Shown here piece after piece: positions 3,433 to 57,942 of a stretch of DNA of 64,000 nucleotides. Position numbers and translations under genes: made by a program. The DNA lies in contig NC_086097.1 in NCBI RefSeq assembly GCF_963921235.1, positions 67,210,001 to 67,274,000 on the forward strand, read 5' to 3'. Each line of letters begins with the position of its first letter. Position 1 is the first letter of the stretch. The notes under the pieces were generated by a model, which was given only the letters and a program-made list of their open reading frames with translations, ran no database searches and was not told the DNA's origin. Origin of the DNA: Mobula hypostoma (taxonomy: Eukaryota).

Positions 3433-3714
3433 TATTTCATGATTCCCATCGGAACCACACGCAAAGGTTCACCACTTATCGGCCATTTTGTGAAATGCTT
3501 GGTCCTTGCGAAAGCATGTGCTGGTTTTGAACATTATATCAATTATCTTGCTACTCCATTTTAAAAGAACCCCAGCTCTTTAACCTTCATCGATTTCTTT
3601 CTTTTCCAAACTATGTAAAAAAAAAATTTCCAGTATAGCCATTTTGAATATATTGATCTTTTCCAATCCTTACTGGTTCGGGAACATTGAACAGAGACCG
3701 GTACAGCACAGGAA

Positions 3715-5215
3715 TGTAATGTGAAGGGTTACCTTACTTCCCGATTGAAAGCCACTTCTGCTGTGCCAGTCATTGATGGGCCTGTTCTAAGGATGTTACA
3801 GTTCTTTCCCATTGTTTGGCTTTTATGCCATGGCACTGGTTTCCAGTTCCAGGTGCTTCAAGGGTGTAAGAATAGTGTGTGCAAAAGATTCTGTCTCTTT
3901 GTTAGGTGCTCATCTTCACACTGAGATCGTGACCAGTGCTGAAGAACCATTGGGAAAGTGCTGCAGGTGTAGGAGGGCTTGTGCGCACACTTAGCTAAGT
4001 ACCTGTTGTTGAATGTTTAGTTTTGTAGTAGTGTAACTTGGGGAGACTTAATGAAGTGCCTGTTGAGATTGAAGTGTTACTGAATGTTCAGTGTTGTATT
4101 TTTGTAACTTTAGGTACTTGTTTAATTTAGATTAGAGGTTCCCAACCTGGGGCCCACAGACACTGTGGTTAATGGTAGGGGGTCCATGGCATAACAGAGT
4201 TGGGAATCCCTGATTTAGATGTTTGGTTGTCTGTAAGTAAATAGTTAATGGGCTTACTCGTAATTAGTGTCTTCTGTCTCACTTACCGAACCTGTGAACC
4301 TGCTTCTCCATAACATATGGCACTGCAAGCAGGGTTCAGTGAGTGAGTAGAAGATGAATTATGAGAGAGGAAACCCTGTGCGAGCAATGCTGAGTCCTGG
4401 GGTGGCCTGACAACGGTGCAGGATTTAGGAGTCTCATCAACCTACTATGGTGTACGGAACACCCATAGACTGGTCAGATGAGTTGAATTCCTGAGGGGTG
4501 AAAATCGGACACCACATCGTATCTGTACTTAATAAGGCAGTGTACCACAAGAGGAAGGGGAGCCAGAGGATGCTTTCTGGCAGCTGGTAGCTGGAAGTCA
4601 TTGTAAGGTGCCAGCATGAGCTGATCGCACGGAGTGATCAGGAGATAGTAAGTCTCGAATGAGGTGGAGGTGCTGCACAAATGCTGTACCACCATGGAGG
4701 TGCCCATTTGGCACAGACCTGGGCCAAAGAGCTATGTGACAAGAGTATGGAGATGGTCTGTCAGCTAATGAGGATGCAGCAATTAGAGGCTGCCCAACAG
4801 ACTAATTGGCAACCAGATCTCATTAAGGTCCGAGCCTTGATAGTGCAGGGAGATGATCCCAACACATGGATGGTGAATGGGGATGTCTGGCTTGATAGGG
4901 TAGAGTGGATTCTGTCTCCAACTGATCGCCCTTTCCCCTACCAGACCGATGACCATGCAGTCCCATACCTGTTATGGGGGGCTTCGGCCCTTGAGAGAGG
5001 GGAGGAGGGTGTGGAACCAAGGGGAGTGGTACAATGCTTGTGACAACAGAGATTAGGGAGCTCTCTGCTAAAGAATTGATGTGATCAGGGTATAGGTACA
5101 GACAGAAGCCAGGAGTTGCCTGGCCACATGGTGGTTCAGGATATGGGATTGGAGGGGGCTGGGGGCTACCAGAATGAGTCTATCTAGTAGAGAGATGGGC
5201 ATTGTAGGGGGGTGT
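3715..5215 (+). mobile_element. Truncated LTR-element remnant (candidate LTR 3715-4315, PBS-like site, decayed internal region)
   Basis: TGTAAT...TAACA block followed by TGGCACTGCAAGCAGGG (PBS-like, 4318) and a purine tract AGGGGGG near 5206. No matching second LTR seen. Confidence 0.45.
4133..4212. mobile_element. 80-bp hAT (Charlie-like) MITE
   Basis: TIRs TAGAGGTTCCCAAC / GTTGGGAATCCCTG with a perfect 8-bp TSD ATTTAGAT (4125-4132, 4213-4220). Confidence 0.85.
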
Positions 5216-6173
5216 TGTCCCAACACATGATCAATAATGCCCTGAACTCGCCACTGCTTTCTGTATTTTTTACTGTTGACTATTTATCTCTGCTGCGCAC
5301 TACATGCATTTTGAATTATATTTTTAGTAACTAATGAGGAGACAGAACTGTATACAATACTTCAGTTGTGGCCTTGCTAGAGCTCTATAAATCTGGAACA
5401 TCCTGATTTTTGACTTCAGTACCTCGAATAATAAAGGCAAGCATACCATATGTCTTAACAACCCTGGTAACTTATGTAGCCACTCTGTTATATCACAACA
5501 AAGTGTACTATTTGCTTATTGCACCAAATATTCCCTGCTTTTTTTCTTAAAAAGGCTTGTGTACCAACAGGGGTTTCAGATCAAGCCCATTGGAACTTGT
5601 TTAATAAGACAGATTCATAACTGACAAAAATACTACTCTTTTATTGCCTTATGAAAGACTCAAAATTGTTCCAGTGAAAATGAAAATATATTGTACATGT
5701 TTCCCAAATGGCACAGGACTTTTCTTGTTTCCCAAGGAAAATAATGAGGAATGGGGAACTATAATTTGTTGATAAGAACATAAGGCTTTTGAAGTGTTGA
5801 AATTATGCCATCTTAACTGATAAAGTAGTTCTGGCCCAAATAATCTGTATAAATTTAAAGCTTATTTGTAAATTTGTAGTTTATACTCCTAATGTAAATC
5901 TGAACATTTACATTTTACCAGTTCTTCAAGATGCTGGTCTTGAAGAAAGGGATACACAGTGGCTGCATGTATCTTGGATAATTTTTACTCAACCACCTTG
6001 AATGTTCTGAGAATTTGAAATGCTACTTAAATGTAAAGACAAGACTCAATTGCATAACTTTGACAAGATTTGCAATCTTTGTTTATTTGGTTCTGCATGA
6101 AAGTGTTACGTGTTTTCTCCTGAATGTTCATTTTAGTAAAGTGATCTTTTTGTATGTATTTTTTTATTCACAG

Positions 6174-49045: not shown

Positions 49046-49820
49046 AGCTCAGCACGTCAGGCAGCATCAATGGAAAAGGCTAAACAGTCGAGGTTTTGGG
49101 CCGAGACCCTTCATCAGGACTGAGAAAGAAGAGGGAAGATGCCAGAATAAAAAGGTTAGGGGGAGGGGAAGGAGGCTGGCTGGAAGGTGATAGATGAAGC
49201 CAGGTGGATGTGAAAGGTCAAGGGCTGGAGAAGAAAGATTATGATAGGAGAAGAGAGTGGACCATAAGAGAAAGGGAAAGAGGAGGGGACCCAGGGGGAA
49301 GTAATAGGCAGGGGAGAAGAAGTGAAAGATCAGAGTGGGGAGTAGGGGGGTGGGGGGAGAAATTGATATTCATGCCACCAAGTTGGAGGCTACCCAGGTG
49401 GAATACAGGGTGTTGCTCCTCCACCCTGAGGGAGGCCATGGATCGACACATTGGAACAGGGATGGGAATTGGAGCTAAAATGTTTAGCCTCTGGGAAGTC
49501 CTGTTTGTGGCGGATGGAGCGTAGGTGCTCGATGAAGTGGCCCCCGAATTTACGATGAGTGTCTCCAATGCAGAGGAGGCCTCATCGGGATCTCTGGACA
49601 CAATTGACGATCACCAGCAGATTCACAGGTGAAGTGTTGCCTCACCTGGAAGGACTGTCTGGGGCCCCGAATGGAGGTGGGGGAGGAGGTGTATGGGCGG
49701 GTGTGGTGCTTAGGCTGCTTGCTGGGTTAAGTGCTGGGAGGATTAGTGGGGAGGGACGAATGGACAATGGAATCACAGTAGCAGTGATCCCTGCAGAAAG
49801 CTGGGGGAAGGTAAAGATGA
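49046..49820 (-). mobile_element. Older Penelope-like 3' fragment
   Basis: LRVEEQHPVFHLGSLQLGGMNINFS (GIY-YIG C-terminus); degenerate hammerhead at 49086-49121 (GAAA>AAAA). Confidence 0.85.
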
Positions 49821-50726
49821 TCAAAGTACATATGAATATGTCAGCATATACAACCCTGAGATTCGTTTACTTGTGGGCGTACACAGTAAATCCAAGAAAC
49901 TCAATAGAATCAATGAAAGACTGCACCCAACAGAATGGACAAATAACCGATGTGCAAAGTCAATCAACTGTGCGAATACAAAAGAGAAAAAAACCAATAA
50001 ATATTGAGAATATGAGATGAAGAATCTTTGAAAGTGAGTTCATAGATTGAGGGAACAGTTCAGTAGGTAGAAAGGATACTCGACATCTCTGTCTGGCTAC
50101 TACTTTGGTACTAACCTCCTATAATGTTCCTGTAATTGCACGTCGAATGTTCTTATGACTATAATGTAACTTCAGATGTTCTGAAACAAATCTGCTGTAT
50201 CCTCTCTTTGACTGCACAATGGATTTTAGATAGCACTATTATCAGGGCTATATGCTGCATTTTGCATCAGGTCTTTTCTAGACCCCAGTAATATTGTTGA
50301 CTGGCTGGGTTCCGAGCAAGAACTCAATGTTTCCGCCTCCAAGAGACTTTCATTACCCAACCTGCCTCATTGTTTTCAATAGTGAGTGCTTTCTCTGACA
50401 GCTGAAATAATAGCTATTCTGAAAATATTGCTGATATTTTGAAATAAAATTTCTGTTTACACCTTTACCTTATGAATTTGAATGTATTTATATCCAGTAC
50501 ATTAGGATTAAATTTTAGCGGTTTGAGTATGGCAGGTGAGTACAATTCTGGCTGGTAGCCAGTTGGCTAATCAGAACCAAAAGCATCAAGCTATAGTCTT
50601 CTGTCTAGGAATGATTACTCTGTAAATTGGGTATGGCGAAGAAGTTTGGCAGGGAAGGAATCCTTAAACACTTGACATATGTTTTCATTATCATGAAGAC
50701 AAACTAAAACTGAGAGAAAAAAAATG

Positions 50727-50927
50727 TGTTACATTTGTGGTGCTGGGAAGCCGGATGGCTGTGAATGACTCACATGAGAGACAGAGAGGTGAGGCAGAAA
50801 CATGCAGCTGCTTATTTTGCTTGTAAGTCAGCTACCCAGATGCCTTCTCACGTTACATTCAGTATGTAACACACAGGGAAGCCTGACAGCAATCTGTAAG
50901 GGTCAAAATATACATGAATACATAACA
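50727..50927 (-). repeat. 3' LTR (201 bp)
   Basis: TGTTA...TAACA, adjacent to the PPT; aligns end to end with 56961-57161. Confidence 0.9.
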
Positions 50928-51249
50928 TATCCCCCCGCTTATCTTAAAGGTTTCTCACCTTCCCATACACAGTCCAGCTACTGAACTATTAACATTCAAT
51001 GGAGCACTCATTAAATTCAACAGGCAACAAAAGACATTTATATAAACTAGAGAAAGAGGCTAGAATGGCTCTATTTCCGGACATAACCCTAGGGATTATA
51101 ACCCATATGCTGAGGGTTAGTCACTAAACTAGACTGGAGGCCGCCTGTTCCTGTGAATGTACTAACAACCTGGGGATGTTGTGGAAGTCATTTTATTTCT
51201 TGGTGGTGTATGTATAGATCTGAACTTGGGTGTTGCATTGCCAGTAGGG

Positions 51250-52408
51250 GGCACCACCAGGTGATGGATGAATGGCCTTGCTGATTAAGGACTGGTGTGT
51301 GATGATTCTGACTGCCAAGCAGCTCACATAGACCATCTGGGGATGGAGGCCGCATTACAGGAGCAGTAGAATTTGAGAGGGTTTTGATTGCAAAGGCAAG
51401 GTGCCACTTTCCTTTATACTATTAAAAAGCTTATTGAAAGCAGTCATATCTGTGATTTTTTTTTGTATTTGTTTAGGACCGGATGATGCAGTTAGTCTGT
51501 TTCAGATGTTCCACCATGAACAGGGTGGCAAGCTTCCTCTCAGGTTTCATTTCGAGACCTTTCAGTTCTGCTTCCACCTCTTCCACAGACAAAACCACTC
51601 CGCCCATGAACTCCAGGTTCTTCTTGTTGGCAGTGAGACTGGACAGCAGTGTTTTCACACCACATTTCCCTTTCACAGTATTTCTAAACTATCAACCTTT
51701 TTATTAATCTCCTTATTATCTTCTCGTGCTGGAATGGAAACAAAAGTAGTTTCCAAGCTGTGAAACGAGAGTTGAGATCCTTTGGTCCAGACTAGCAAGT
51801 CTCTCAAGTTCTTCATGTAGGGTAGGCCGTAGGCTACTGGAGCGACAATCTGTAAGTTATTTGAAAGCCATTGACTGAACTGGCTGGATGACACTGATTC
51901 TTCACCAAGCACCTCATCAATCATCAGTGCTAGTCCAGGTACACTTGTTTCATGTTGAAGAACTCACTGGAATCAAGGTTCCCCAATGAGGGTTCAGTCA
52001 AGACTGCTTCTCATGGAACTTCTTGCTCAGCTTCTGATGCAGAAGCAGTAGGTATCTCTTCTTGGGCAGCACCATTGCATTCTACACCTTCTTTAAGGGT
52101 TTCTGATTGCTTCCTCCACCCCCTTGTCCATCTTGGATTCTCCAATAACACTTTATCAAAGCCTGTCAGCTTTACTGTTTCTGATTGACTAGTAGGGCCA
52201 GAGAAAACCATTGTGGTTCCTTTTCAGTATAGGAATCACATCGCCTCTGCTCACCAAAAATGTGTTTACCATCACCAAACTCTCTCCTAAAGCACTTTTC
52301 CTCGAAGTCTCATTTCCTTCCTTCTTGAGCATGTCTGTCACGCAAGTCTCTGTCTCTGCCATCACGATCAAAGGTTCTTGGTGTTCAAATTTTCCCACAA
52401 AGATTTTC
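51250..52408 (-). pseudogene. eif4enif1: Processed EIF4ENIF1 (4E-T) retrocopy, downstream part
   Basis: Collinear motifs across frameshifts: FRREFGDGKHIFGEQRRCDSYTEKEPQWFS/GPTSQSETVKLTGFDK, KEGVECNG, EQEVP, EFFNM..VPGLALMIDEVLGEESVSSSQFSQWLSN, HEELERLA, LLSSLTANK, GVVLSVEEVEAELKGL, FMVEHLKQT, DMTAFNKL..SGTLP. All match human 4E-T as recalled. The downstream boundary is approximate. Confidence 0.9.
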
Positions 52409-53898
52409 TTTTTCTTTTTTTTTAAATTTTATTTTTATTTGGATAAGGAATTCACAATTATCATGTACTTTTTTCACACATATAACCTTTTCCATTTTTT
52501 TATATGTATAAAACTACAATTATTTATACATTCTTAAGTACACATTGAGATGATATAAAAGGAAAATAAACATTTAAATAGATTAATTATGTACTGTGGT
52601 AAATCTAACCTATTAGGCTAAGTAATGAAATTAGTTGTTAAGAAAAATGGTAATAATAGTTTCCATACAACCCTTCTGGACCATTTCCACTGGTCCAAAA
52701 TGTTGCATACAAGCCTATATACCAACCATTGTAGGCGTTTATATCCCAATTTGTTCGTGCTTGTTCCTGCCCGCAGACATAATTATCCAATCCCTATGTA
52801 CTTATTTACTTAATTTCTTCATTTTTTTTTTATCCCTTTCCCAAATCTTTCCCTTTACTTGTGTTAATTCTCTATTTTACAAAAAAAAACAAACATTTAG
52901 ACTAGGGGTGCTTACGTTAGCAATATTACTGTGTTGATGAGAAGAGCAATATAAATCATTAGGAGAGTCATCTAAAGTCTGCTCGCATTGGGGTTATATA
53001 TTCAATCCATTTATTCCAGATTTGATAAAATGTTTCTTTTTGAGTTCTCAGGGAGTGTCAACTTTTCCACTTTAAATATTTCCAAGATAATTTCGTACCA
53101 ATCTTCTAATGTAGGTGGTATTGGATTTAGCCATTTTCTAGTGATTGATTTCTTACTTGCCGCTAAGAGGGCCTGCAGCAACTTTATATCTTTCTTCTGT
53201 TCAAGGAACAATACATGCCCCAAATAGAGCATCTCAAAGTTCAGAGGTATCTGGGACCTAAGTACCTTAACTAATATTCTATGAATACTTTCCCAAAATA
53301 GACTTAATTTAGGGCAATCCCAGAAAATATGAAAATGATTTGCCTCCTTGGAGCCGCACCTTCTCCAACACATCACGTTTGTATCTTTATATTTTTCCTG
53401 ATATGGGGTCTTGAAGTATCTTATAATGTTTTTCCAACAATGTTCTCTCTAAGTCAAAGAATTAGTCGAGGACCATTGAAAGCTGCAGACTTTCCCCCAA
53501 GCCTCCTCTGAAAGTACCAACCCCGCTTCTTTCTCCCACTTCTCTTTAATATACAGTGTATTTACATTTTTAGCATGGGAGAGTGCATTATATAGGCGAG
53601 AAACTGATTTACTAAGTATTGAACTGCAAGCCGAATTCAGAATCTTGAAAAATTCTAATTCTACTGTTGATAGGTCTGTATATCTACAACTCTGGTTAAC
53701 ATAGTTTCGTATTTGAAGGTACCTAAAAAAGTCATTATGTTCTAGGCCATGTTTGTCCTGCAGGATTTGGAAACTTTGTAATACTCTTTTATCTATAAAT
53801 GAGAGGTAGGTTGTAAGACCTTTCTTTATCCATAGCTCAAACCTTTTATCTCCTCTGTTGGGAAGGAATTCGGTATCATATGCACACCATCTAAAGAG
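52409..53898 (-). mobile_element. 5'-truncated L1-clade LINE inserted in the 4E-T retrocopy
   Basis: Same family as 24313-25603; poly(A) tail; 19-bp TSD TTTTCCCACAAAGATTTTC (52390-52408, 53899-53917). Confidence 0.93.
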
Positions 53899-54335
53899 TT
53901 TTCCCACAAAGATTTTCATTCTTTTTATTGTCCAATGGGCTTTCAGTTATTAACTATTGGAGGTGTTGGTCACATGATAGCCATCCCAAAGCCTTGGCGC
54001 TGAGGACTGAGTACAGCATCAAGATCTGCTTCCTTTATTCTCCCTTGTGGATCTGCAATTCTTTGCTGGAGAACTGCTCTCTCCAAATCTGAAGCATAGT
54101 CCTTCTTCGTTCTATCCAGTGACAAACTCCTGCCAGATAGAAAGGTGCATGTCAGTTTTCAGGGTCCCAGATGCCTTCACTGTCATACTTTCCCAAAAGA
54201 AATGCCAGTCTCTGCTTTACATATGGGTAACTCTTTGATTTCTAGCAGTTTTTCCTTGGAATATCTATGTGGTTTCTTCATGCCACACATTTTTATTGTA
54301 TTGTTTAATTGAACTTTTCTTTCAATCCATTCTTT
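53899..54335 (-). pseudogene. eif4enif1: Processed EIF4ENIF1 (4E-T) retrocopy, N-terminal part
   Basis: KKPHRYSKEKLLEIKELP (human PHRYTKEELLDIKELP, eIF4E-binding YxxxxLL at 54243-54263), KYDSEGIWDPE and IADPQGRIKEADLDAVLSPQRQGFG (human IVDPRERVKEDDLDVVLSPQRRSFG). Possible original ATG at 54330. Confidence 0.92.
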
Positions 54336-54829
54336 TTTATCTATGCCACACCGAGGTTCAACAGTACCTCTGTCACTCGGCTAACAACCCAGCCTTAACA
54401 GCCAGCTTAATAGTGACACTGCGCCATTCTCTGTAAAATACTTCTGCGTCTTTCTTCAGCAGCCCTTGGAGACCAGTGCACCCACCAATCAAATGTGCTT
54501 TGTGCCTTTTGAGTTTGAGCTGCTCCAACCACCAGTGGCCCAGAAGCGATGGATAACTATCTTTAACAACTACTGTTCATTAATCTCCACTGTGACATGT
54601 ACCACTCCCTTCACTGGAACAACCTCACCAGTGTAAGTCTTTAAAGTCAACCTTGTCCCTTCCGGGGTGAGATCTGCAATTTCTCCTTGTAAACTGTTTC
54701 TGACACCAGCGATACTGCAGCCCCCCGTGTCCACCTGCTACCACACTGTGGCTCCATCCAGCCACGGAGTCACCCAATAGCTACCTTTATATCCTGAAAC
54801 AGATAAACATACAACACTTATATGGTTAA

Positions 54830-56172
54830 CAACAGGAATTCTGCAGATGCTGGAAATTCAAGCAACACACATCAAAGTTGCTGGTGAACGCAGCAGGCCA
54901 AGCAGCATCTGTAGGAAGAGGTGCAGTCGACGTTTCAGGCCGAGACCCTTCGTCAGGACTAACTGAAGGAAGAGTGAGTAAGGGATTTGAAAGTTGGAGG
55001 GGGAGGGGGAGATCCAAAATGATAGGAGAAAACAGGAGGGGGAGGGATAGAGCCAAGAGCTGGACAGGTGATAGGCAAAAGGGGATACGAGAGGATCATG
55101 GGACAGGAGGTCCGGGAAGAAAGACAAGGGGGGGGGGAGGTGACCCAGAGGATGGGCAAGAGGTATATTCAGAGGGACAGAGGGAGAAAAAGGAGAGTGA
55201 GAGAAAGAATGTGTGCATAAAAATAAGTAACAGATGGGGTACGAGGGGGAGGTGGGGCCTAGCGGAAGTTAGAGAAGTCGATGTTCATACCATCAGGTTG
55301 GAGGCTACCCAGACGGAATACAAGGTGTTGTTCCTCCAACCTGAGTGTGGCTTCATCTTTACAGTAGAGGAGGCCGTGGATAGACATGTCAGAATGGGAA
55401 TGGGATGTGGAATTAAAATGTGTGGCCACTGGGAGATCCTGCTTTCTCTGGCGGACAGAGCATAGATGTTCAGCAAAGCGGTCTCCCAGTCTGCGTCGGG
55501 TCTCGCCAATATATAAAAGGCCACATCGGGAGCACTGGATGCAGTATATCACCCCAGTCGACTCACAGGTGAAGTGTTGCCTCACCTGGAAGGACTGTTT
55601 GGGGCCCTGAATGGTGGTAAGGGAGGAAGTGTAAGGGCATGTGTAGCACTTGTTCCGCTTACACGGATAAGTGCCAGGAGGGAGATCAGTGGGGAGGGAT
55701 GGGGGGTACGAATGGACAAGGGAGTTGTGTAGGGAGCGATCCCTACGGAATGCAGAGAGAGGGGGGGAGGGAAAGATGTGCTTAGTGGTGGAATCCCGTT
55801 GGAGGTGGCGGAAGTTACGGAGAATAATATGTTGGACCCGGAGGCTGGTGGGGTGGTAGGTGAGGACCAGGGGAACCCTATTCCTAGTGGGGTGGTGGGA
55901 GGATGGAGTGAGAGCAGATGTACGTGAAATGGGGGAGATGTGTTTAAGAGCAGAGTTGATAGTGGAGGAAGGGAAGCCCCTTTCTTTAAAGAAGGAAGAC
56001 ATCTCCCTCGTCCTAGAATGAAAAGCCTCATCCTGAGAGCAGATGCGGCGGAGACGGAGGAATTGCGAGAAGGGGATGGCGTTTTTGCAAGAGACAGGGT
56101 GAGAAGAGGAATAGTCCAGATAGCTGTGAGAGTCAGTAGGCTTATAGTAGACATCAGTGGATAAGCTGTCTC
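54830..56172 (-). mobile_element. Young 5'-truncated Penelope-like element inserted between gag and protease
   Basis: Uninterrupted frame 56170-55259: DVYYKPTDSHSYLDYSSSHP...IPFSQFLRLRRICS, CKRNKCYTC linker, GVIYCIQCSRCGLLYIGET (GIY-YIG). Pseudo-LTR with a hammerhead. Confidence 0.95.
54925..54960 (-). ncRNA. Minimal type I hammerhead ribozyme (Penelope pseudo-LTR)
   Basis: AGTC-CTGACGA-AGGgtctcggCCT-GAAA-CG-TC/GACT on the minus strand. Confidence 0.8.
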
Positions 56173-56960
56173 TTATATGTCACTTATATGGTTATATGGT
56201 TAACACTTCTTCAGCCACAGAGTGAAAATCACTCAGTATGTGCCACCTTGTTCACATTTCTACTTGTTTTTCCAAAAGTCATTTTTCTGTATTACAGTGT
56301 TATTGGTTGACAGTGTCTTTTTACTTCTACAGGCACGTTCAATATGCCACAGCTTCAGCAATCTAGATCCTTATACCAGCATTCTTTTGCTGAATGCCCA
56401 GTTTTTCCACAATGGTAACATTGATTGCCAATAGGTGTCTTATTCTTAAAGTCTGTCAAAACTTTATGTACGTAGAAAGATGCACTTAATAGCCGTGATT
56501 CTTTAGCCACTCTCTCCGTAGGTGTACAGTACTAATCTCAATTGCCTTCTGGAATGTTAGTCTGCCTTTTCAGTCTTCCACTAGACTGAGTAATAATTAA
56601 ACATTTTTGCACCCAACACAGTCAGAAGAGTTGGAACACGATATTTGCCAGTGCAAAATATTCAAATCTTTCAGTCCATTGCTCTGTCGTTTCGTCATAC
56701 GGACCTATACATACAAACATTGTTGCATTTTCAGACAGAGTCACGTTGCAGAAAAGTTAACTAGTCTTACCCATCTCTCTCTCCCTCCCTCCCTCTCCTA
56801 TTTGTTTTGATTAACTGTCCGGTTCTCGTTCTCTGCCCTCATATTCTTCACTCACCACGCTTCCTGCGGCTGTCTTTCTCATGGCGTGCACACGAACCTG
56901 TCTTGCTTAAGGGAACAAAACAATAAATATCGTGTGAGGAATCATCACCTCGTCACCAGC

Positions 56961-57161
56961 TGTTATGCCTGTAGTATTGGGAAGCCGGGTGGCCGTGAAT
57001 TACAGACGAGAGGCGGGAAAGCCGAGGTACAAATGTGTTGCTGTTTACTTTACCTGTAAGTCATCTACCCAGAATGCCCTCTCACATTACGTTCAGCACG
57101 TAACACACAGGGAAGCCTGACGGCGATCCGTAAGGGTCAAAATAAACACGAGTACATAATG
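56961..57161 (-). repeat. 5' LTR (201 bp), CpG-retaining
   Basis: Aligns with 50727-50927; adjacent PBS-like site at ~56940-56958. Confidence 0.88.
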
Positions 57162-57942
57162 TGTAATAGAAAAACTTATCCTGCTATGCTTTTTTGGAGA
57201 TAATTTTAAAATTAATGGTTCAGGATGAAACGTTCTGAAGTTTTTGCTGTGGGATTTAATGTTGACTTTGGCTCACTCTGTGCAGGGATGGGCTGTGGGT
57301 AGGAATGTGTGTAAAAGGAGTGTATAGTATAATGAATTAACGTTTTGGTTTTTAAATGCAGGTTGTCCTTTGATAAATCTCCTTCCTGTGATAAGAACGT
57401 TCTAGAGAGCATGACAACTATTTTAACTCGGGTAGCAGAAACAATAACTGAGTTTTTTTTACAACATTTTTCCAAGATTTGATTAATTCTTAGTCTTGGG
57501 CCTAACTCTGACATAAATGTGGTAGTGGACTGAAACTGCAAGTAAAGGTCAACATGCTAAATTTTTATTTGTTTTGCAATTTTACATTGATTTGATTTTG
57601 AAAGGCAGAATTGTTGATGCTATTCTTGAATAAGTTATCAGTTTAAAGTGTTTTTAGCAATTCAGATTTGTTATCTTGATATAGAAGCATAAGGATTTAG
57701 ATTTACCTCAGCAAATTATTGAGGAATCAGTTTTGCTAACAGTAACACAATGGTTGTATGGTCCCCTGTACCCAGAATTTTGAGATTACAAATAGGTTTT
57801 ATGACCCATCTGGTTCAGTATGGCGATTATGCACCTTACGACCCTCCTTTCCTCTTTCTTCATATAACCCCCTCCATGACATTCATCTCTCCTGCATGTG
57901 AATATTCCTTCCCCTTGAGTGGATCTTACTGTGCATTTAAAT

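Follow-up and report, generated by a model that had tools for sequence, protein, structure and literature searches.

What took the place of the replicative enzymes in a retrotransposon whose interior appears to hold a piece of a host mRNA? This question is raised by positions 57161-50727 (minus strand) of a 64,000-nt stretch of the Mobula hypostoma genome (contig NC_086097.1, 67,210,001 to 67,274,000), which we call the window. An original prediction, made from the letters alone, held that a Gypsy long terminal repeat (LTR) retrotransposon at this locus had exchanged its reverse transcriptase (RT), RNase H and integrase for a spliced mRNA of the translational repressor 4E-T (EIF4ENIF1). Our analysis confirms that the segment is a decayed copy of a non-autonomous Ty3/Gypsy family and shows that its cargo is a spliced mRNA copy of the host's own EIF4ENIF1, which replaces internal Gypsy sequence and does not interrupt a continuous Gypsy element. 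We consider it highly probable that the mRNA was captured by template switching, and that the resulting non-autonomous element then underwent a burst of mobilisation in trans.

A whole-assembly Pfam search recovered a stop-free, multi-exon 4E-T gene (EIF4ENIF1) on another contig (C71:60047582-60085296), and mapping of the cargo to its exons bore out both the 4E-T identity and the mRNA origin that had been predicted. The cargo aligns with this parental locus in 11 collinear blastn blocks (77-90% identity, E down to 1e-80), and these 11 exon blocks, spread over 37 kb on C71, are contiguous in the element, all 10 introns having been removed exactly. With refined boundaries, the parental exons are bounded by AG/GT sites and translate to an open 4E-T N-terminal sequence. 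Parental exon 1 (C71:60085296-60085250) is a GC-rich exon of the 5' untranslated region (UTR) with a GTGAGC donor, and exon 2 has the acceptor cag/GCATGG; the junction of these two exons is exact in the chimeric copies, in which the host part begins 47 nt upstream of the exon 1 donor. At its other end the host part stops near codon 542, midway through exon 11, at a point that is not spliced in the parent. The N-terminal extent assigned earlier to the 4E-T segment thus holds, except that the segment starts in the 5'UTR and not at the coding start. A full-length, intact 4E-T coding sequence was not found: only about the first 542 codons are present, and the cargo is a fragment of the 4E-T gene, not a 4E-T gene.

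Profile and motif comparisons identify the parts of 4E-T that were carried along. The 4E-T profile PF10477 matches three open reading frames (ORFs) of the window copy (E = 2.6e-4, 3.3e-7 and 0.015), collinear along the profile, and is matched by ORFs of sibling copies with E = 6.4e-19 and 9e-10. The product of parental exon 6 shares 41 of 44 residues (E = 2.5e-22) with PDB 5ANR chain C, a peptide of human 4E-T that was crystallised with DDX6 and CNOT1. The first coding exon encodes YSKEKLL, a motif of the eIF4E-binding YxxxxL-hydrophobic type, in the parent as well as in the window copy, where it lies within ...KKPHRYSKEKLLEIKELP and the start codon has decayed to ATA. A search of solved structures with the N-terminal 4E-T ORF of the window gave no relevant match.

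The junctions of the cargo show what it replaced. In an alignment of 24 chimeric copies, five RT-bearing siblings and the parent, the abrupt switch from Gypsy to 4E-T that had been placed at about 54390 falls at 54391/54390. The equivalent alignment of the 3' junction (chimeric copies, RT-bearing siblings and parent) reveals 8 nt shared between parental exon 11 and the Gypsy pol tail, with the crossover inside them. A poly(A) or A-tract and a target duplication at the cargo borders, together with Gypsy sequence continuous across the cargo, had been named beforehand as marks of ordinary insertion by a long interspersed nuclear element (LINE); none of the three was seen in these alignments. Among the 40 non-self matches of a probe for the 5' junction, seven end at the junction, and six of those loci (L035-L040) were fetched. 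Their similarity to the element runs through gag and protease as far as 54394-54390, resumes at 51255-51254 and continues to the 3' LTR; between the two junction points these loci hold 2.5-5.9 kb. In L037 and L039 the order is protease, an RVT_1 fragment, RT_RNaseH (E = 1.9e-10), Integrase_H2C2 (E = 2.2e-7) and rve (E = 5.6e-7). All six of these RT-bearing relatives are also broken. Because the enzyme domains of the siblings lie exactly between the two junctions, the mRNA segment was swapped in for the RT core, RNase H and integrase.

The remainder of the element is readily recognised as Gypsy (Table 1). Its two LTRs are 81.4% identical (153 matches against 35 mismatches, comprising 27 transitions and 8 transversions; Kimura two-parameter distance, K2P, 0.22), and their alignment returns exactly the LTR ends claimed in the original prediction; the LTR starts with TG in sibling copies, as against CA in the 5' LTR of the window. 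The TGGTGACGAGGTGA-like stretch that follows the 5' LTR recurs in L031, L022 and L037, with TGG 2 nt past the LTR end, and could serve as the primer-binding site (PBS). A Pfam profile search found a zinc knuckle (PF00098, E = 1.4e-5) in ORF 56531-56355 of gag, which in the window is about 250 nt shorter than in the siblings, all of which show a gap between query positions A625 and A633. Protease ORFs at 54737-54373 end in ...IKLAVKAG, with a VDTG motif in ORF 54737-54570; on sibling L028 the protease gives a weak Asp_protease_2 match (E = 6e-4) that is under the Pfam cut-off. This protease and early-RT part is 72-79% identical to the RT-bearing siblings up to exactly the 5' junction. On the far side of the cargo, the stretch with RNRRPPV, previously read as a pol end, is homologous to the 3' end of pol in RT-bearing siblings. 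Profile searches with the 14 longest ORFs of the region found no RT, RNase H or integrase, as had been claimed, and the family alignments leave no space for them. The predicted order of 5' LTR, PBS, gag and protease, followed after the cargo by pol end, polypurine tract (PPT) and 3' LTR, is therefore upheld by ORFs, the PF00098 match and sibling homology; what the earlier layout overlooked is a Penelope-like insert at 56180-54828 and the deletion of about 250 nt in gag.

Both Gypsy/4E-T junctions recur at many loci, and the chimera was thus amplified as a family. Of the 40 non-self matches listed for the 5' junction (72-78% identity), 27 cross it; for the 3' junction 20 of the 39 listed do so, the other 19 beginning on its Gypsy side. 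A cargo-only probe of 1111 nt gave 70 first-look candidates, the best 40 of which were scored and yielded 55 matches, against 309 first-look candidates for an RT/RNase H probe of equal length taken from a sibling. Chimeras thus make up roughly one fifth of the wider Gypsy family, and the chimera has spread to something like 50-70 loci. The same segment architecture is repeated across 31 fetched loci, with L030 and L031 as compact full copies of 3.5-3.6 kb; chimeric copies lie on more than 20 different contigs, and homology to the window copy stops at the LTR boundaries in the loci examined. One locus departs from this architecture: in L024 (G000:C81:1623001-1633000, about 3546-5893) the LTR and early gag run directly, within some 40 nt, into the cargo near its start codon, without the knuckle, the protease or the usual 5' junction, and it is probably a deletion derivative.

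To place the spread of the chimera in time we projected 25 copies onto the parental mRNA and built a maximum-likelihood tree for 20 copies in which the parent served as outgroup. K2P is 0.135-0.19 between copies and parent (0.135 for the window copy) and has a median of 0.232 between copies (276 pairs). The tree is a pure star, none of its 18 inner branches having support of at least 95, with end branches of 0.10-0.15 and a parent branch of 0.042. The LTR-LTR distance of the window element (K2P 0.22) equals the copy-to-copy distance, which fits integration of all copies at roughly the same time. A tree of the protease region mixes 17 chimeric with six RT-bearing copies in one unresolved star, indicating that the RT-bearing elements belong to the same family and are of similar age; we infer that these siblings were the source of enzymes in trans for the chimera. 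In the same tree the end branches of several RT-bearing relatives (0.05-0.07) are shorter than those of the chimeric copies (0.08-0.15), a hint that the autonomous line may have been active somewhat longer. On these comparisons, the family goes back to one capture and one burst.

The copies then decayed without constraint. Differences private to one or two copies amount to 0.0715 (codon position 1), 0.0717 (position 2) and 0.0713 (position 3) per site, and this evenness indicates neutral decay. Most copies agree against the parent at 66 of 1682 sites; of the 62 coding sites among these, 43 are third positions, and 44 changes are synonymous and 18 non-synonymous. With a quarter of the sites taken as the divisor, the synonymous divergence between copy consensus and parent comes roughly to 0.11. 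It equals the neutral decay of the copies in size and is explained by evolution of the parental gene under constraint since the capture. On these distances the burst followed the capture with no measurable lag. The window copy is dead, as predicted: the 508 aligned codons of its cargo hold four in-frame stops and 15 frameshifting indels, and stops and/or frameshifts are present in all 25 copies examined. The same codons have become stops in up to 12 of 22 copies, and 10 of 15 such recurrent sites are CGA in the parent, a clear mark of heavy CpG decay (methylation) of the copies.

An earlier question was whether a fusion of Gag and protease (PR) with 4E-T had once been intact. From GTT AAG in the Gypsy frame to the retained ATG of the cargo there are 57 nt in nine copies and 54 nt in one, a multiple of three in all 10 scorable copies among 24 examined. 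An open frame leads from the protease through the 5'UTR-derived stretch into 4E-T in L007 (227 aa), L008 and L020, and in L019 a single frame runs from the knuckle region into the protease. Beyond the 3' junction, 4E-T and the pol tail are in different phases, and the 4E-T frame ends five codons on at a TGA that can still be made out in 10 of 15 chimeric copies. No single stop reaches more than 55% of the copies, no deletion is common to at least 50%, and the sole shared insertion is 3 nt long. Thus the cargo was in frame with the protease, no disabling lesion is common to the family, and the bursting element most likely encoded Gag-PR-(RT stub)-4E-T(1-542). As the burst followed the capture at once, an intact frame needs no selection; the chance of an in-phase fusion is one in three. 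Long frames (586-1309 aa) had been suggested at L021-L023, and our own ORF scan found none tied to the chimera. A protein search with the 227-aa junction-spanning ORF of L028, confined to lengths of 124-398 aa, gave 421 word-sharing candidates, none with E at or below 0.001, and is uninformative on other species.

The insertion in the window can be followed into other organisms. In a word index, the 3' part of the window copy had shares of 0.91-0.94 in organism A, probably the source of the window, 0.42 in B, 0.15 in C, 0.13 in D and 0.07 in E; organisms F and G, at 0.06 each, were not used. Contigs were accepted as orthologous at a likeness of at least 88%, paralogues reaching 72-81% over long stretches and locally up to 87%. 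By this measure at least three other organisms (B, D and E; Table 1) carry the window insertion together with its flanks, their contigs bridging LTR and flank. The chimeric insertion was thus in place before at least A, B, D and E separated. These four differ by about 1.5-6% at the locus, and each copy of the family has decayed by about 11-12%.

Two younger inserts are nested in the element. The Penelope-like fragment, framed by a 13-bp target duplication (AACCATATAAGTG, at 56193-56181 and 54827-54815), separates gag from the protease, and family homology restarts at 54814. A second fragment of the same repeat (80% identity over 128 nt) lies just outside the element at 49614-49741. Summed contig depths of 0.5-3 million for this repeat in all four organisms compared mark it as extremely abundant in the group. 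The other insert, LINE-like, is missing at the orthologous site in organisms C and D, where contigs (records 25 and 5) join 52394/52395 to 53903; it is therefore younger than the splits from C and D, and constitutes a lineage-specific, datable insertion within an older one. As a separate observation on the assembly, Sds3-like sequence (PF08598) is highly multi-copy, with 119 matches and 331 first-look candidates on many contigs.

Table 1. Features of the chimeric element in window coordinates, and contigs of other organisms that bridge its borders
Feature	Coordinates	Strand	Evidence and remarks
5' LTR	56961..57161	(-)	201 nt; terminal TG is CA in the window copy; LTR-LTR alignment and sibling ends
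PBS-like site	56941..56958	(-)	starts TGG, 2 nt past LTR end
gag remnant with CCHC zinc knuckle	56181..56940	(-)	knuckle ORF 56531-56355
Nested Penelope-like fragment	54828..56180	(-)	GIY-YIG endonuclease ORF 56179-55259; PF01541, E 7.1e-5
Aspartic protease and first ~40 RT-region codons (...LQGLLKKDAEVF...IKLAVKAG)	54391..54814	(-)	ORFs; sibling identity
5' junction Gypsy/4E-T	54390..54391	(-)	overlap of at most 1 nt (G); common to the family
Host 5'UTR	54345..54390	(-)	about 47 nt of parental exon 1 and 2 nt of exon 2, spliced
4E-T coding part 1	53918..54344	(-)	parental exons 2-5, blastn 77-87%; PF10477, E 2.6e-4
Nested LINE-like insert	52409..53898	(-)	A-rich tail; 19-bp target duplication at 53917-53899 and 52408-52390
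4E-T coding part 2	51266..52408	(-)	parental exons 5-11, blastn 84-90%; PF10477, E 3.3e-7; includes DDX6-binding CHD
3' junction zone	51255..51270	(-)	microhomology TCCCCCAT(C)ACC in parental exon and Gypsy pol tail; partly decayed in the window copy
Gypsy pol C-terminal tail (including RNRRPPV), 3' untranslated stretch and PPT	50928..51254	(-)	homology to 3' end of pol ORF in siblings L035, L037 and L039
PPT	about 50946-50931	(-)	purine run ending GGGGGG just before the 3' LTR
3' LTR	50727..50927	(-)	201 nt, TG...CA ends
Organism B, record 16	50200-50900		bridges 3' LTR and flank; 9 differences
Organism B, record 23	57058-57700		bridges 5' LTR and flank; 14 differences
Organism B, record 20	54077-54527		bridges 5' junction; 13 differences in 451 nt
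Organism D, record 1	50200-50918		bridges 3' LTR and flank; 36 differences
Organism D, record 7	57067-57700		bridges 5' LTR and flank; 38 differences
Organism E, record 15	57067-57429		bridges 5' LTR and flank; 18 differences

The spliced cargo, the replacement of the enzymes and the junctions shared by the family lend support to the proposal, already contained in the original prediction, of a retrovirus-style transduction of 4E-T into a non-autonomous element that kept its cis signals. In such a scenario spliced 4E-T (EIF4ENIF1) mRNA would have been packaged together with Gypsy RNA in one particle. During minus-strand synthesis RT would have used the 8-nt microhomology to move from the Gypsy pol tail onto exon 11, copied the 4E-T mRNA to or near its cap or 5' end, and rejoined Gypsy RNA some 40 codons into the RT region through a second switch that had little or no homology. 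The product, of the form LTR-PBS-gag-PR-[47 nt 5'UTR + about 542 codons of 4E-T]-pol tail-PPT-LTR and about 3.5 kb long, would then have integrated. Endowed with cis signals and devoid of RT, RNase H and integrase, this chimera was presumably copied in trans by its RT-bearing siblings; it spread in a single burst, and every copy decayed neutrally thereafter. The cargo is 5'-complete into the 5'UTR and 3'-truncated.

The main rival to template switching at both ends moves the first step to DNA: a Gypsy element just upstream of, or within, the 4E-T promoter would have had its early RT region fused to exon 1 by a deletion, the chimeric LTR transcript would have been spliced, and only the 3' junction would stem from an RT template switch with a helper RNA, in the manner of oncogene capture. 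A 5' junction with an overlap of at most 1 nt, situated in exon 1 at 47 nt before the donor, is in line with such a read-through transduction, as are a fusion in frame with the upstream Gypsy ORF and the microhomology at the 3' junction, which is what an RT switch is expected to leave. We nevertheless regard this course of events as unlikely: there is no remnant of the Gypsy family within about 10 kb upstream of parental exon 1, where only the exon itself was matched (L033, L034), and run-off at the 5' end of the mRNA gives the same junction without an extra deletion. The missing relic is weak evidence, in that the allele on which the capture took place could have been lost.

Far less probable still are two explanations that dispense with capture or with retrotransposition of the chimera. 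That one chimeric locus was multiplied by segmental or other DNA-level duplication would agree with the fact that no target duplication was demonstrated at the LTR ends, and yet seems to us very improbable, given copies on more than 20 contigs, homology that stops at the LTR boundaries in the loci examined, a star tree with equal branch lengths, and an LTR-LTR divergence in the window equal to the copy-to-copy divergence, as if the two LTRs had been identical at integration. To the notion that the cargo is a LINE-made processed pseudogene of 4E-T nested in Gypsy, its look of replacement being accidental, we assign a negligible likelihood. LINE-type insertion did occur in this element, as the A-rich tail and 19-bp duplication of the nested insert at 53898-52409 show; the cargo, however, has neither poly(A) nor a duplication at its borders, its 3' truncation and 5' completeness run counter to the LINE bias, upwards of about 2.5 kb of RT, RNase H and integrase sequence is gone exactly between the junctions, and both junctions are common to 20-27 dispersed LTR-bounded loci.

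Several points weigh against capture by template switching followed by a trans-mobilised burst. With an overlap of at most 1 nt at the 5' junction, only the 3' junction backs a switch guided by microhomology; the true 5' end of the mRNA is no more than a presumed start of the host part, and a first step at the DNA level may have taken place. No matching 4-6 bp could be read beside the LTRs of this copy, although decay of about 11% per side leaves little power to detect such a duplication. Mobilisation in trans is deduced from shared sequence and age; copy counts are rough, being first-look candidate numbers of which only the best candidates were scored; and the cross-species comparison rests on short contigs.

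With both breakpoints resolved against a living parental gene and RT-bearing siblings, the copy shows that transduction of a spliced host mRNA is within the reach of a vertebrate Ty3/Gypsy element, and that the captured mRNA can then multiply into a family and need not stay a single retrocopy. The protein behind the cargo regulates translation and mRNA storage, and its in-frame fusion to Gag-PR brings to mind a specific idea of granule targeting. Ty3 and HIV-1 Gag are described, in the sources PMC4589538 and PMC3413349, as assembling with Dhh1/DDX6 in P-body-type granules. By analogy, it is conceivable, though doubtful, that Gag-PR-4E-T(1-542) was functional during the burst, its eIF4E- and DDX6-binding parts tethering chimera RNA and Gag to such granules; if so, tethering might have given the chimera preferred access to sibling enzymes and made it a hyperparasite with a stolen host granule scaffold. 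There is also a possibility that the approximately 60 copies of 4E-T embedded in transposable elements feed small RNAs against the parental gene. In practical terms, gene annotation and homology searches in these genomes can be led astray by the dozens of 4E-T fragments decaying there. If several captures share related backbones, the lineage would offer a natural system for studying the rate at which LTR elements shuffle host exons.

A parallel in overall design is provided by acutely transforming retroviruses and helper-dependent transducing retroviruses, in which a spliced host coding sequence replaces replication genes, the host part is read in a Gag-host fusion frame, propagation depends on a helper, and the 3' recombination is non-homologous or guided by microhomology. 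The 4E-T chimera likewise has its replication genes swapped for a spliced host coding sequence, has a Gag-host frame, depends on a replication-competent sibling and shows microhomology at its 3' junction. In contrast to these viruses, it belongs to an intracellular Ty3/Gypsy lineage without env that spread in the germ line, shows no sign of an effect on the host, and carries a truncated translational repressor in place of a growth gene.

As a known mechanism, LTR-mediated retroposition by RT template switching, invoked from the outset, agrees with the account of animal retrocopies by Tan et al. (2016, Genome Res 26:1663, PMC5131818), where internal ORF sequence is replaced, the copies are 3'-truncated and lack poly(A), and there are signs of further retroposition. 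According to that text, microsimilarity was present at 25 of 29 junctions, with a median of 6 bp, and junctions without it exist. The chimera resembles those retrocopies in that an intronless mRNA copy stands for part of the internal ORF, both LTRs are kept and the cargo is not flanked by a duplication; in its microsimilarity at the 3' switch point (8 nt, against at most 1 nt at the 5' junction); and in that such chimeras can act as non-autonomous elements. Unlike the retrocopies described there, which were polymorphic and of which two in Drosophila had more than one insertion site, the 4E-T chimera occupies about 50-70 loci and derives from an old event common to several species, and its cargo starts in the 5'UTR and forms an in-frame Gag-PR fusion.

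Further relatives in kind come from plants and reptiles. Among plant gene-carrying LTR retrotransposons (reviewed in PMC13317346), maize Bs1, named in PMC5131818, is similarly a non-autonomous LTR element that holds host gene fragments between intact cis signals and can amplify; it is a plant element with pieces of three genes, in contrast to the vertebrate host and the one contiguous 5' part of a single mRNA seen here. Gene capture by crocodilian endogenous retroviruses (PMC4299795) offers another vertebrate LTR retroelement with host sequence, with the difference that those elements are Retroviridae and the present one is Ty3/Gypsy. The original prediction knew of no 4E-T-carrying element: none appears among the literature matches listed, nor is 4E-T named as cargo in the passages of PMC5131818 consulted. 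The phenomenon as a class had already been published there. The class is established in animals and plants, and within it the 4E-T family is an unusually clean and well-amplified case.

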